Part shown: piece after piece, positions 7,239 through 41,614 of the stretch
How positions within the stretch are numbered: position 1 is the first letter of the stretch
How the letters are laid out: each line of letters begins with the position of its first letter
The notes under the pieces: model-generated
Database searches by the model: none
What the model saw: only the letters and a program-made list of their open reading frames with translations
What the model was told of the DNA's origin: nothing
Program-made: the position numbers and the translations under genes
DNA from: Escherichia phage moha
Direction: 5' to 3' (one strand)
Sequence record: MN850590.1
Length of the DNA: 64,000 nucleotides

Positions 7239-7562
7239 ATGACTACCGAGATTATTGAAAATAAAGAAGCAGAAGATGCAGTAGCTAAAATGCTAAAAGA
7301 AATCCAAAAGAAAAATGAAGCTGAAGCACGTAAAAAATCCGAAAAGATTCTTAAAAAGAATCGTTTTGAACTAAACCGTCTTTATGCTCATGCTCAAGAA
7401 GCAGCAATTCAAAACAACTTCGAAGCTTACGAATATGCTATTAAGAAATCTCGGGATATTCTACGACAACCATACAATGACAAGTTAATTAAAATCCAGT
7501 GGGTTACTACTCGTCAGGCTATTGAGGACATCATTAATGGCGCTAGTTCAAACAAAGTTTAA
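7239..7562 (+). CDS. Hypothetical Lys/Glu-rich protein
   Basis: 107-aa ORF. Confidence 0.5.
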   Translation: MTTEIIENKEAEDAVAKMLKEIQKKNEAEARKKSEKILKKNRFELNRLYAHAQEAAIQNNFEAYEYAIKKSRDILRQPYNDKLIKIQWVTTRQAIEDIINGASSNKV

Positions 7563-27488: not shown

Positions 27489-27536
27489 GTTTACTTCTCC
27501 AGTAGTTGTGTTATTATAGATCTATCAACTACTGGA
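27488..27536 (+). promoter_or_regulatory. Early-type promoter embedded in 12-bp inverted repeat that includes the downstream SD
   Basis: -35 GTTTAC 27488-27493, -10 TATTAT 27511-27516; arms CTCCAGTAGTTG (27496-27507) and CAACTACTGGAG (27525-27536). Confidence 0.55.
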
Positions 27537-38552: not shown

Positions 38553-39230
38553 ATGAGCACTGATGTTATTATAGATTTTGAAACATTCGGCAATACATCA
38601 AAAGCGGCTGTTATTGACCTTGCGGTTATTGCATATAATTCGGACCCTGAAGTTGTTGAAACATTTGAAGAACTTGTTCAACGAGGTAAGCGAATTAAAT
38701 TTAATTTAGCTTCTCAAAAAGGGAAGCGAGTTTTCGCTAAATCAACTATGAAATGGTGGAAAGAACAATCGGCTGAAGCGCGTAAAAACTTGGCCCCGTC
38801 TGAAGACGATGTCACTACGCTTGAAGGCATTAAAATCTTTTTAGATTATTGTCGAGCTAATAAAGTTGACCAATGGAAATCACAGATGTGGTGCCGTGGT
38901 ATGAGCTTTGACTTCCCGATCTTGGTCGATTTGATTCGTGACCTCTATCGTGATGAAGGTGTTCTTGAACCAGATATTGATACTGATAAATTAGAACCTG
39001 TTAAATTCTGGGCTCAACGTGATATTCGTACGGCAATCGAAGCTTACTCGTTGACACGAGGATTAAGTATGTGTCCATTACCGATGGGTACGCTAAAAGG
39101 ATTCGTTGCTCATGATAGTATTCATGATTGTGCTAAAGATATTTTGATGTTAAAATATGCTCAGCGTTATGCGCTTGGCCTTGAAGATGTCCCTGAGAAT
39201 CCTGACCCGTTAAGTGTAAAACAGCGATAA
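38553..39230 (+). CDS. dexA: Exonuclease A (DEDD-type)
   Basis: N-terminal IIDFETFG exo motif; 225 aa; position after dda. Confidence 0.7.
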   Translation: MSTDVIIDFETFGNTSKAAVIDLAVIAYNSDPEVVETFEELVQRGKRIKFNLASQKGKRVFAKSTMKWWKEQSAEARKNLAPSEDDVTTLEGIKIFLDYCRANKVDQWKSQMWCRGMSFDFPILVDLIRDLYRDEGVLEPDIDTDKLEPVKFWAQRDIRTAIEAYSLTRGLSMCPLPMGTLKGFVAHDSIHDCAKDILMLKYAQRYALGLEDVPENPDPLSVKQR

Positions 39231-39235
39231 AATCA

Positions 39236-39265
39236 GTTTACAACCAAGGATGGTTGGAGTATAAT
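39236..39265 (+). promoter_or_regulatory. Early-type promoter (copy 1 of duplicated unit)
   Basis: -35 GTTTAC, -10 TATAAT; CCAAGGATGGTTGGAGTATAATG. Confidence 0.5.
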
Positions 39266-39296
39266 GAATCTATCTTAACCAAACAGGAAAAACATT

Positions 39297-39791
39297 ATGA
39301 ATATCAATACTACGGCTACTTACATCCTGAAAGACGAAAAACAAATCAACTGGTACGGTGCTTCAGTGCGAGCTTATGAAAAGTTTTGTGAAATTTTAGG
39401 TGCCACTCAAGGTAATAGTTTCACTATTGTTAACTTCATCAAACAAGCTGAAGGCCCTTGGTTATTCTTAGAAATTAAAAATTCACACGGTACAATTTCT
39501 ACTACCGCCATTCCAAGCACCGACTTTGAACTGTTGATTGAAGAAGTAGAACCTGTTAAAGACATCTGTATTGATACGGATATCGCTTGTATGTACGGTA
39601 CTCTGATTAAGCCTATTGAGCCTACTGATTTGCTGTGTAAATATGTTTCAATTCGACGCCCATTCGCTGGTCCAGTAAATGGATGGGTAACTGATCAGTG
39701 GATTGAAGACGGTGTTGAACTTCTGAACGTTGTTCATGCAGGTGATTTTAGTGTAGTTCCACGTAGTGCTGTGGTTAATATTCTAAATTAA
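39297..39791 (+). CDS. Hypothetical protein, tandem paralog family member A
   Basis: C-terminal block WVTDQWIEDGVELLNVVHAGDFSVVP shared with next two genes. Confidence 0.5.
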   Translation: MNINTTATYILKDEKQINWYGASVRAYEKFCEILGATQGNSFTIVNFIKQAEGPWLFLEIKNSHGTISTTAIPSTDFELLIEEVEPVKDICIDTDIACMYGTLIKPIEPTDLLCKYVSIRRPFAGPVNGWVTDQWIEDGVELLNVVHAGDFSVVPRSAVVNILN

Positions 39792-39793
39792 TG

Positions 39794-39823
39794 TTGTACA
39801 TCCAAGGATGGATGGAGTATAGT
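39794..39823 (+). promoter_or_regulatory. Early-type promoter (copy 2 of duplicated unit)
   Basis: CCAAGGATGGATGGAGTATAGTG nearly identical to 39242-39264. Confidence 0.45.
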
Positions 39824-39851
39824 GAATTCAATTTAAACAAAGAGAGAAATT

Positions 39852-40316
39852 ATGATTACTATTGGTGAAATTAAGCGTGTATCGACAGCGTCTCGTTCTA
39901 AAGCTGCAGGAAAGCTGGTTGAAGTAGTAGGACTTCGTACTAATGGCATGGGCCGTATTAAAGAAGTTAAAGTTCGAATCATTCCTAGTTCTGGAAAAAC
40001 TGAAACTCAGTTCGCCTATGTAAGTCCTAAATTCTTGGAAACTCGTGTAAGTGCCCACTTTGCTTCAAGCGATATCGTTGAGCCTACTACACAGTTCAAA
40101 TGGGCCTTATGTAAAGGTGTTGAATTCCAGACTGATAAAGAATTTGACTTCATCGATGAATACGGTTATCCAAGCAAAACTGATACTATGTGTGGCTTCA
40201 TTAGCGACCAATGGGTTGAAGATGGTAAAAAGCTATACAATATTGTATTCTTAGGTGACTTCCGAGTTGTTGAAGAATCTGAAATCACTCGCTATGTGTC
40301 TCCTCGTAAAGCTTAA
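39852..40316 (+). CDS. Hypothetical protein, tandem paralog family member B
   Basis: ASRSKAAGKLVEV and FISDQWVEDGKKLYNIVFLGDFRVV blocks. Confidence 0.5.
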   Translation: MITIGEIKRVSTASRSKAAGKLVEVVGLRTNGMGRIKEVKVRIIPSSGKTETQFAYVSPKFLETRVSAHFASSDIVEPTTQFKWALCKGVEFQTDKEFDFIDEYGYPSKTDTMCGFISDQWVEDGKKLYNIVFLGDFRVVEESEITRYVSPRKA

Positions 40317-40325
40317 GGAATTATT

Positions 40326-40745
40326 ATGAATATTGTAAATCTCTCTACAGGTGATTACGTACACGTATCGGATGCTTCTCGCTCTAAAGTTGCCGGGAAG
40401 TTGGTTGAAGTTCTTTCTGTGAGTGATCCGGTTTTTGGACGTAACGAAGTTAAAGTTCGTGACGCCGATGGTAACATTGGTTACGTCTCAAGCCAGTTCA
40501 TTGAACCAGAAGAAAAAGCGTTCAAATGGAAACTGTGCAGGTCAGTTTTAGTTGTAAAAGATCATGAATTTACTATTGCTGCCGCAACTGATGGGTCTCC
40601 ATGGACAACGAATCAAGTCGCTGGTTTTATTTCAGACCAATGGGTTGAAGATGGTGTTAAGCTTTATAACATCGTTTTCGCCGGACAGTTCATGGTAGTT
40701 CCTGAATTCCAAATCAAAGGATATAGCCAAGCATCTTTTGCATAA
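40326..40745 (+). CDS. Hypothetical protein, tandem paralog family member C
   Basis: ASRSKVAGKLVEV and FISDQWVEDGVKLYNIVFAGQFMVVP blocks. Confidence 0.5.
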   Translation: MNIVNLSTGDYVHVSDASRSKVAGKLVEVLSVSDPVFGRNEVKVRDADGNIGYVSSQFIEPEEKAFKWKLCRSVLVVKDHEFTIAAATDGSPWTTNQVAGFISDQWVEDGVKLYNIVFAGQFMVVPEFQIKGYSQASFA

Positions 40746-40749
40746 AGTA

Positions 40750-40798
40750 GTTTACTTCTCCTCTGGTTTTGATATTATAACCATATCAACCAGAGGAG
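40750..40798 (+). promoter_or_regulatory. Early-type promoter embedded in 11-bp inverted repeat that includes the downstream SD
   Basis: -35 GTTTAC 40750-40755, -10 TATTAT 40773-40778; arms CTCCTCTGGTT (40758-40768) and AACCAGAGGAG (40788-40798). Confidence 0.55.
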
Positions 40799-40804
40799 AA
40801 TAAT

Positions 40805-41329
40805 ATGTTAGTTTACCGCGTAGAACGTAGTTTTTGTACTCAACGTGAATCATTACCCGGAATTGCTATCGAAGACGGTAAAGCCGTCAGAATTTGGGAA
40901 ACCTCTTGGAATAAAGAACCTCGCTCGCCGTACGGTTGGTCGGGTACCGACAACTCTGAAGAAACATGGGAGTTCCTTGATAAACACGGAATACTCTCAG
41001 GTAACTTCTACCATCACGGCGACAACTATAATGTCCCTAATCGTCCTACAGTAAATGAAGACAAACTCCTTGAACAAAATATCTTAAGATACTATAGAAT
41101 TGAGCACACATTTGAATTGAGTGAAGATTGGGCTCAAGGGTTCTATTTTGGATTTGAAAGTGTTGACGCGGTTTATACATGGTTTGATGACCAGGTGGAT
41201 GTTGAACTCTTGAAAGCTAAAGGATACTACATCGCGGTCTATGAAGCACCTGATTTCATACTCGGAAGTTGTCAATTAATGTTCAGACGTTCATTAGCAG
41301 AACAAGTTGATTTTATTTTGCTAAAATGA
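40805..41329 (+). CDS. Hypothetical protein
   Basis: 174-aa ORF with GAGGAG RBS. Confidence 0.5.
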   Translation: MLVYRVERSFCTQRESLPGIAIEDGKAVRIWETSWNKEPRSPYGWSGTDNSEETWEFLDKHGILSGNFYHHGDNYNVPNRPTVNEDKLLEQNILRYYRIEHTFELSEDWAQGFYFGFESVDAVYTWFDDQVDVELLKAKGYYIAVYEAPDFILGSCQLMFRRSLAEQVDFILLK

Positions 41330-41386
41330 TGTACAACAACTATGGTCTATGATACTATAGACCTATCAAAACAAGAGGAGAATATT

Positions 41387-41614
41387 ATGAAACGTCAAAT
41401 CATTAAAAACGTAACTACTGATTCAAACATCGATGAGTTTGAAGATGTTCTGTTTAATCCTGATTTAGTTGTTGTACAGAAAAACTGGACTGAATTTTTA
41501 TGCTACACTGAAGTGGTTTACGTTTACGAAAAACTCGGCGATGAAATGCCTATCTATGGTATCTTCCGTGAAATCACTGAAAATGGTACAACTTATTGGA
41601 AGGAAACTTACTAA
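41387..41614 (+). CDS. Hypothetical protein
   Basis: ATG 41387 after AGAGGAG. Confidence 0.45.

Follow-up and report, generated by a model that had tools for sequence, protein, structure and literature searches.

The motB.1-motB-motB-like cluster of a Mosigvirus: a promoter repeat flanks motB.1, and relatives appear to have lost the gene repeatedly

MotB of phage T4 is made early and binds DNA irrespective of its sequence. Besides this DNA binding, toxicity to E. coli, co-purification with H-NS/StpA and a doubled burst size have been described for it (PMC6070864, PMC7827196), and it counteracts H-NS, a xenogeneic silencer (PMC7827196). MotB and MotB.1 have a common C-terminal domain and different N-terminal domains (Patterson-West et al. 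2021, PMC7827196), and it was suggested that one of the two derives from the other by duplication (PMC7827196). The C-terminal domain of MotB is termed an OB-fold in the literature and may bind DNA, while the N-terminal domain of MotB.1 adopts an LSm-like fold shared with GoF and Frd.2, as described in 2025 (PMC12152347). RB69 was reported to have motB in two copies, together with one motB.1 and a 29-aa peptide (PMC7827196). A second described system that bears on the locus is that of the PeSLs, promoter-early stem-loop cassettes known from RB49/phi1 and PST/T4 (Arbiol et al. 2010, Comeau et al. 2014; PMC2839356, PMC4122927), for which mini-circles were demonstrated in RB49/phi1 (PMC2839356).

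We analyzed a stretch of 64,000 nucleotides of Escherichia phage moha (MN850590.1), hereafter the window. The source phage is a Mosigvirus, that is an RB69-type T4-like phage; the region studied is 98% identical to that of Escherichia phage APCEc01, with the same gene order, and more than 140 database records cover at least 80% of the query. The local order is dda, dexA, A, B, C, D, cef, and A, B and C are ORFs of the same strand that occupy a variable slot bordered on the left by the conserved exonuclease gene dexA (38553..39230, + strand) and on the right by the conserved cef (41387..41614, +). The same slot is likewise filled in T4, RB69, JS98 and 23 IMG/VR loci, and this early, non-essential position between dexA and cef of a Tevenvirinae genome is the one that characterizes the MotB family.

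Gene A (39297..39791, +) encodes an intact MotB.1 ortholog of 164 aa that matches phrog_2333 end to end (E=2.4e-81, residues 1-164). Gene B (39852..40316, +; 154 aa) is the MotB ortholog, 48% identical to T4 MotB over its full length, and gene C (40326..40745, +; 139 aa) is a second MotB copy, 44% identical to B and 40% identical to T4 MotB; both B and C match phrog_1671. Because the gap between B and C is only 9 nt, C has no promoter of its own and the two genes are probably co-transcribed. Gene D (40805..41329, +), whose nearest T4 partner is MotB.2 (34% identity), was considered as a fourth paralog and rejected, since it matched neither Pfam, PF17613 included, nor the C-terminal-domain HMM and is a MotB.2 homolog that lies outside the MotB family. 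Some records, for example that of pEB20, give D the label "MotB". In the phage database the C-type copy was found at 80% identity or more in about 207 records, the B-type copy at 60% or more in about 201 (all sampled rows at 78% or more) and the Mosigvirus-type MotB.1 at 90% or more in about 149. A search of the whole window against Rfam matched no structured RNA.

The earlier note had described A, B and C as consecutive ORFs sharing a conserved C-terminal block, and this is borne out by both domain and pairwise searches. All three proteins score above the 25-bit gathering score of PF17613 (MotB, modifier of transcription), with 34.3 bits for A, 136.9 for B and 86.6 for C, and their C-terminal domains contain the core G[FWY][IV][TS]DQW[VI]EDG..L.N.V..G. 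An HMM of this domain run on the six frames of the window returned exactly three copies, in A, B and C (E = 1e-31, 9e-29 and 9e-28, respectively), and no further match. The BLASTP alignments are significant for each pair, with E=1e-10 for A-B (32% over 110 aa), 3e-11 for A-C (62% over the 29-aa core) and 2e-32 for B-C (44% over 148 aa), and the three genes are true paralogs. The N-terminal SRSKxAGKLVEV block that the same note had assigned to B and C is also real, the underlying DNA being 81% identical over 47 nt. The KOW-like N-terminal domain to which it belongs (SRSKxAGKLVEV...EVKVR) identifies B and C as MotB proper, category 1 of Patterson-West 2021 and phrog_1671. A and B have only the C-terminal domain in common, their N-termini being different folds (MotB.1-type and KOW-like). 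When 1.84 billion representative proteins were searched with a profile of the C-terminal domain, 27 clusters at 50% identity came up, mostly of 100-250 aa with one 43-aa fragment, and none of these 27 lay clearly outside the MotB family. The family defined by this domain is thus small and phage-restricted.

The trio itself, the gene family and the paralogy within it had all been known and annotated before: RB69, the type Mosigvirus, has the same trio in the same arrangement and the sharing of a domain by MotB and MotB.1 was published in 2021. The RB69 cluster motB.1/ORF012/motB/ORF010 (NC_004928) belongs to the same genus and shows the same gene order and the duplicated promoter. The RB69 motB.1 has two 1-nt insertions that split it into a 132-aa ORF and the 29-aa peptide, whereas the copy in the window is uninterrupted. 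B resembles T4 MotB in the combination of a KOW-like N-terminal domain with a DQWVEDG C-terminal domain, the position upstream of cef, the basic pI and the early-type promoter; the difference is the presence in this phage of C, an acidic second copy directly behind it. A and T4 MotB.1 share 37% identity. The T4 reference motB.1 is frameshifted (119 aa) by an apparent extra G at NC_000866.4 position 7304-7305, so that its product is truncated, and has no intergenic promoter, whereas A is an intact protein of 164 aa whose C-terminal domain is complete and whose gene has a predicted promoter to itself. A also carries the 23-aa motif DTDIACMYGTLIKP in its linker, a motif with an N-terminal position in other variants.

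Two predicted early-type promoters accompany these genes, one ahead of A (39237..39265, +; TTTACA-17-TATAAT, spacer ACCAAGGATGGTTGGAG) and one ahead of B (39795..39823, +; TGTACA-17-TATAGT, spacer TCCAAGGATGGATGGAG). Both fit the sigma-70/T4-early type by match to the consensus, and in the region as a whole promoter-like sites are no more frequent than in shuffled sequence (18 against 18.9). They had been called near-identical in the earlier note, and indeed the 23-nt core CCAAGGATGGWTGGAGTATARTG is found in the window solely at 39244-39266 and 39802-39824, with two mismatches between the copies, where chance would give 0 matches even with 3 mismatches allowed. The likeness extends over a promoter-leader repeat of 66 nt (76% identity ungapped; 48/62 or 77% gapped), and sequence comparison places copy 1 at 39239..39304 (+) and copy 2 at 39797..39862 (+), on the left and right flanks of motB.1, respectively. 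We asked how far a common early-promoter consensus accounts for this. For the spacer the explanation was rejected, since the two copies agree at 15/16 positions and the next-best among the 171 pairs formed by the 19 early-type promoters of the window agrees at 11 (background 5.2 +/- 2.2). For the leader it is partly true: the motif cTATCAAC is common there, and the identity of the whole unit, 69%, is only just the highest of the 171 pairs. Immediately behind its -10, the upstream promoter of the window reads TGAAT and so agrees with the downstream copy. At this place TCTTT is found in most other Mosigvirus genomes that contain motB.1 and TTTTT in one, and the TGAAT may be a short conversion tract.

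Comparison of the genes with their promoters indicates that A and B split long before the promoter repeat formed. Over the 29 codons that A and B conserve best the third positions are 34% identical, that is saturated, while the spacers are near-identical. The promoter core is present in every Mosigvirus locus examined, and no Tequatrovirus, Dhakavirus or other non-Mosigvirus locus examined contains it at up to 6 mismatches. In T4 the gap between motB.2 and motB.1 is 10 nt and consequently leaves no room for an intergenic promoter, and the spacer of the T4 motB promoter is unrelated to that of Mosigvirus. Saturated third positions, near-identical spacers, a core confined to Mosigvirus and the T4 gap together indicate a promoter copy younger than the gene duplication.

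The gene order points to the occasion on which the repeat may have formed. In T4, JS98 and others the order is dexA-motB.2-motB.1-motB, and the L024-26 group likewise has dexA-motB.2-motB.1; in the phage studied here it is dexA-motB.1-motB-motB'-motB.2, and in Mosigvirus motB.2 adjoins cef. The -35 box GTTTAC follows the dexA stop codon after 5-6 nt in the window and RB69 and after 6-7 nt in T4 and JS98, and beyond this box Mosigvirus continues with the spacer, -10 and leader found at the motB promoter. The upstream promoter thus looks like a chimera, with its -35 context from the dexA-proximal promoter of T4/JS98 and the rest from the motB promoter. We propose that this direct repeat is young and specific to Mosigvirus, that it arose during the rearrangement of the gene order, and that it would give motB.1 an early promoter of its own; the ancestral order is taken from parsimony over the limited number of genera sampled.

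Direct repeats on both sides of motB.1 lead one to expect that recombination between them has deleted the gene from some genomes. We therefore ran a synthetic junction from which A had been deleted (the dexA 3' end, the promoter core and the motB 5' end) against a phage collection. This search led to the identification of nine phages, JK42, PTE-Eco05, JM17, AV116, AV114, NHEP36, JK45, AV109 and PNJ-9, which match the junction in one piece or over a span of 519-587 nt and in whose annotations dexA is directly followed by motB. Diagnostic positions sort their crossover points into about five classes: inside the -35 box (NHEP36), within the spacer (JK42), between a spacer polymorphism and the leader, around the -10 (PTE-Eco05, AV114, AV116 and PNJ-9), in the leader (JM17 and JK45), and a distinct deletion that keeps both spacers (AV109). 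Among the motB.1-less phages AV109 is the only one that clearly derives from a two-promoter ancestor. The comparison shows motB.1-less relatives joined within the repeats at several different points, and we infer from it that natural relatives lost motB.1 repeatedly by recombination there. On this model motB.1 would be an excisable cassette, and recombination between the repeats would remove the gene and leave one hybrid promoter behind. Overall we read the locus as a Mosigvirus motB.1-motB-motB-like cluster with a young promoter repeat, through which motB.1 has repeatedly been lost, and we give this reading a probability of roughly 80%. It is only modestly new, the additions being the cassette-like loss of motB.1 via flanking promoter repeats and the frameshifts of the T4 and RB69 references.

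The promoter units resemble PeSLs. Like them they are early sigma-70-type units with an SD sequence and an ATG that recur in a hyperplastic region on either side of a variable ORF, and like them they contain the junctions of indels and leave chimeric promoters behind. The form TTTACW-N17-TAYWAT followed by SD and ATG is found here, the downstream copy (TGTACA-17-TATAGT) having one mismatch to this consensus in the -35 and one in the -10, and the nine motB.1-less phages provide the expected hybrid promoters in about five junction classes. In contrast, the stem-loops predicted upstream of the two promoters (-9.6 and -5.3 kcal/mol) are not significant against shuffled sequences (z = -0.42 and -0.83), and strict PeSL membership was rejected on this ground. 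The sole terminator-like candidate is a weak 5-bp hairpin at 39759-39774. PeSLs moreover form a genome-wide consensus family, whereas the repeat in the window is a two-copy, locus-specific pair. By analogy, then, the units may work like PeSLs while failing one of their defining features, the stem-loop.

The PeSL integration model also offers the reverse polarity, in which the motB.1-less state is ancestral in Mosigvirus and motB.1 came in on a promoter-bearing mini-circle, whose recombination with the resident motB promoter created the flanking repeats. A circle with one promoter copy would give exactly the structure observed, PeSL mini-circles have a demonstrated precedent, and the chimeric upstream promoter is compatible with such an event. 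Nevertheless, about five junction classes in very similar genomes fit repeated deletion more easily, AV109 with both its spacers is easier to obtain by deletion from a two-promoter parent, and the roughly 149 records with a Mosigvirus-type motB.1 stand against only nine phages identified without it. We consequently regard insertion as an unlikely account of the present distribution, although it may still be the first origin of the promoter repeat.

The trio had also been presented as a diversifying family. Nei-Gojobori dN/dS was calculated against ten related loci, eight of Mosigvirus type and two of Tequatrovirus, wherever an ortholog was matched. Among the Mosigvirus relatives A, B and C gave gene-wide values of 0.07-0.28, and dexA, D and cef gave 0.00-0.16; positive selection on A, B and C was therefore rejected, and with it "diversifying" in that sense. 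The values suggest instead that purifying selection keeps the C-terminal domain in A and C. What does stand out is dS, which for B and C reaches 0.24-0.70 in 6 of the 8 Mosigvirus comparisons, those with the more divergent relatives, against about 0.1 in the flanks. In addition, the B-C pair is 80-91% identical to the pairs of the Tequatrovirus phages GiZh and ECP2301, whose dexA and cef are just 65-68% identical to those of the window. High dS relative to the flanks and likeness across genera together argue for recombinational allele exchange, and to judge from these alignments B-C behaves as a module exchanged by recombination, also between genera.

These results bear on the view that the trio is an anti-defence arsenal diversifying in an arms race. 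What would suit it is that these early, non-essential genes vary in copy number and pass between genera, and that T4 MotB acts against the xenogeneic silencer H-NS (PMC7827196). However, low dN/dS with elevated dS is the mark of allele exchange, not of positive selection; PADLOC, a library of defence and not of anti-defence proteins, gave no matches; and a published anti-defence phenotype was not found in the literature searched. An arsenal of this kind seems very doubtful to us.

The identical spacers could alternatively represent a shared regulatory site, for instance one bound by a phage or host factor, that co-regulates motB.1 and motB, their use in recombination being incidental. The spacer is kept in every Mosigvirus copy and is unique among the 19 early-type promoters of the window; this conservation carries little weight, however, because the sampled Mosigvirus genomes are all at least 90% identical in the region. 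Moreover, no operator-type inverted or direct sub-repeat was found, and T4 has a motB promoter with an unrelated spacer, which makes a shared site highly improbable. Weakest of all is the claim of the earlier note that the duplication copied promoter and gene together, read here as one tandem event after which the coding parts diverged while selection kept the promoters nearly identical: the promoter-gene-promoter-gene layout and a spacer invariant in all Mosigvirus copies examined speak for it, but a spacer without known function at 15/16 beside third positions at 34%, T4-type genomes that have motB.1 and lack an intergenic promoter, the absence of the repeat outside Mosigvirus, an upstream copy that joins the dexA-proximal -35 context of T4 and JS98 to another promoter, and the unrelated N-terminal domains of A and B leave it barely credible.

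Besides the repeated loss of motB.1 through a young promoter repeat, which remains our preferred reading, the proteins themselves allow some statements on function. AlphaFold2 models of A and B (mean pLDDT 77.2 and 81.8, respectively) each contain two beta-rich domains with a disordered linker between them. The N-terminal domain modelled for A comprises helices and strands (E8-11, H26-37, E42-49, E55-61, E67-73, H74-79, E80-83), and together with the full-length match to phrog_2333 and T4 MotB.1 this places A in the MotB.1 group, its MotB.1-type N-terminal domain being followed by a linker and the MotB C-terminal domain. C has the two-domain plan of B, but is acidic and has a shorter linker. 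The pI is 8.5 for B (10.7 for its N-terminal domain), 4.6 for A and 5.1 for C, compared with 9.2 for T4 MotB, and the C-terminal domains of A, B and C are all acidic (4.7-5.6). Taken as the sole proxy for non-specific DNA binding, toxicity and co-purification with H-NS/StpA, charge would favour B and not C.

By analogy with T4 MotB, from which DNA binding, the interplay with H-NS and early timing are transferred at 48% identity, B is most likely made early and abundantly, coats DNA without specificity and disturbs H-NS/StpA nucleoprotein complexes, which would improve phage yield. Homology and composition suggest that it would bind DNA through its basic KOW-like head, the argument from charge being an indirect one, and that the acidic C-terminal domain is more likely a protein-contact module. 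A and C, which are both acidic, probably differ in function; they would probably use the C-terminal domain for a common protein contact and their heads for something else. The host-takeover flavour that had been attributed to the family is in keeping with what is described for T4 MotB, namely toxicity, DNA binding, co-purification with H-NS/StpA and a doubled burst size.

The cluster presents three heads, MotB.1-type in A, basic KOW-like in B and acidic KOW-like in C, on one small acidic beta-rich C-terminal domain. One may go further and take the C-terminal barrel as a common docking or oligomerisation module for the three heads, and motB.1 as a promoter-flanked mobile cassette with a host-dependent cost; we put this forward as a speculation and consider it improbable. 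If the docking part were true, three nucleic-acid-binding heads would be brought to the same host target, for example H-NS/StpA filaments. If the cost part were true, the deletions of motB.1 in at least nine wild Mosigviruses and the frameshifts in T4 and RB69 would reflect that cost, for example sensing by a host defence.

The practical value of the analysis lies in annotation and experimental design. The trio is to be labelled motB.1, motB and motB-like, and the fourth gene is the unrelated MotB.2. The T4 MotB.1 of published experiments is the frameshift-truncated form, and an intact form of 143-164 aa such as A is the one to be used in tests of function. For the T-even phages more widely, the locus extends the PeSL idea to Mosigvirus, here without the stem-loop, and the promoter repeat would be a clean natural example of promoter-mediated cassette loss, with several independent junctions.

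The T4 reference copy of motB.1, the gene that comes first in the MotB family cluster of the window (motB.1 at 39297-39791), carries one surplus G at about 1805-1806 of the T4 locus L003 (about 7304-7305 of NC_000866.4). The annotated product is consequently a protein of 119 aa ending in ...DQWIGRWR*. When the extra G is removed, T4 motB.1 encodes 143 aa with exactly the sequence of P0132, which is present on 256 contigs, and the 150-nt 'intergenic' gap ahead of T4 motB is therefore the remainder of the MotB.1 C-terminal domain. Published work used the truncated 13.8-kDa form of MotB.1 and does not mention the frameshift. The RB69 copy (RB69p012, locus L031) is also split: relative to the intact copy of the window it has two 1-nt insertions, which give a 132-aa ORF and a 29-aa peptide, the latter already noted in the literature. 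The second of these insertions falls in the stretch encoding DQWIEDG, and some 10 nt separate it from the site of the T4 frameshift. In the IMG/VR locus L019 motB.1 is likewise found in two pieces, of 93 and 73 aa.

The near-identical early-type promoters that flank motB.1 as direct repeats were compared with those of other Mosigvirus genomes containing this gene. Directly 3' of the upstream promoter's -10 box the window reads TGAAT (39266-39270), as in the downstream copy, while the same positions are TCTTT in most of the other genomes and TTTTT in one. Gene conversion between the two repeats, over a short tract, may explain the TGAAT. Other early-type promoters of the window have their -10 boxes at 27512, 28290, 28720, 41353, 53067 and 55566, and a cTATCAAC element located 5-12 nt 3' of the -10 box is common to many of the window's promoters of this type. 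Similar pairs also occur, for example 27512/40773 and 28720/41353 (-10 positions), each with 67% identity over 70 nt. Together, the shared element and these pairs suggest that there are more promoter-cassette families.

Gene D, the MotB.2 homolog (40805-41329), is preceded by a strong hairpin (40756-40800; -23.9 kcal/mol, z = -5.6) in which the spacer of its early promoter (GTTTACT-16-TATTAT) pairs with its Shine-Dalgarno sequence. The ribosome-binding site would therefore be masked in read-through transcripts and exposed in those begun at the proximal promoter. The same design, with compensatory changes, is found upstream of motB.2 in T4 and JS98. Gene D is also bracketed by a 20-nt Shine-Dalgarno/start repeat with 90% identity (40788-40807 and 41370-41389) and by a 19-nt inverted repeat with 95% complementarity (40756-40774 and 41364-41382). 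Because the T4 homolog of D is placed elsewhere, these repeats may be footprints of its relocation.

Some Tequatrovirus genomes, GiZh (L027) and ECP2301 (L029), contain the motB pair (B and C) with 80-91% amino-acid identity to the window, and their dexA and cef, which border the variable slot, are merely 65-68% identical. In ECP2301 motB.2 and motB.1 are missing as well, except for the final motB.1 codons, which directly adjoin the dexA stop codon. The motif D(T/M)DIACMYGTLIKP, found in the linker of the window's MotB.1 (39570-39611, residues about 92-105), lies at the extreme N-terminus of 180-250-aa MotB.1 variants from other genera, and variants from Klebsiella and Enterobacter phages join a MotB.1-type C-terminal domain to a KOW-like head. 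The moved motif and these hybrids show that domains have been shuffled extensively within the MotB family.
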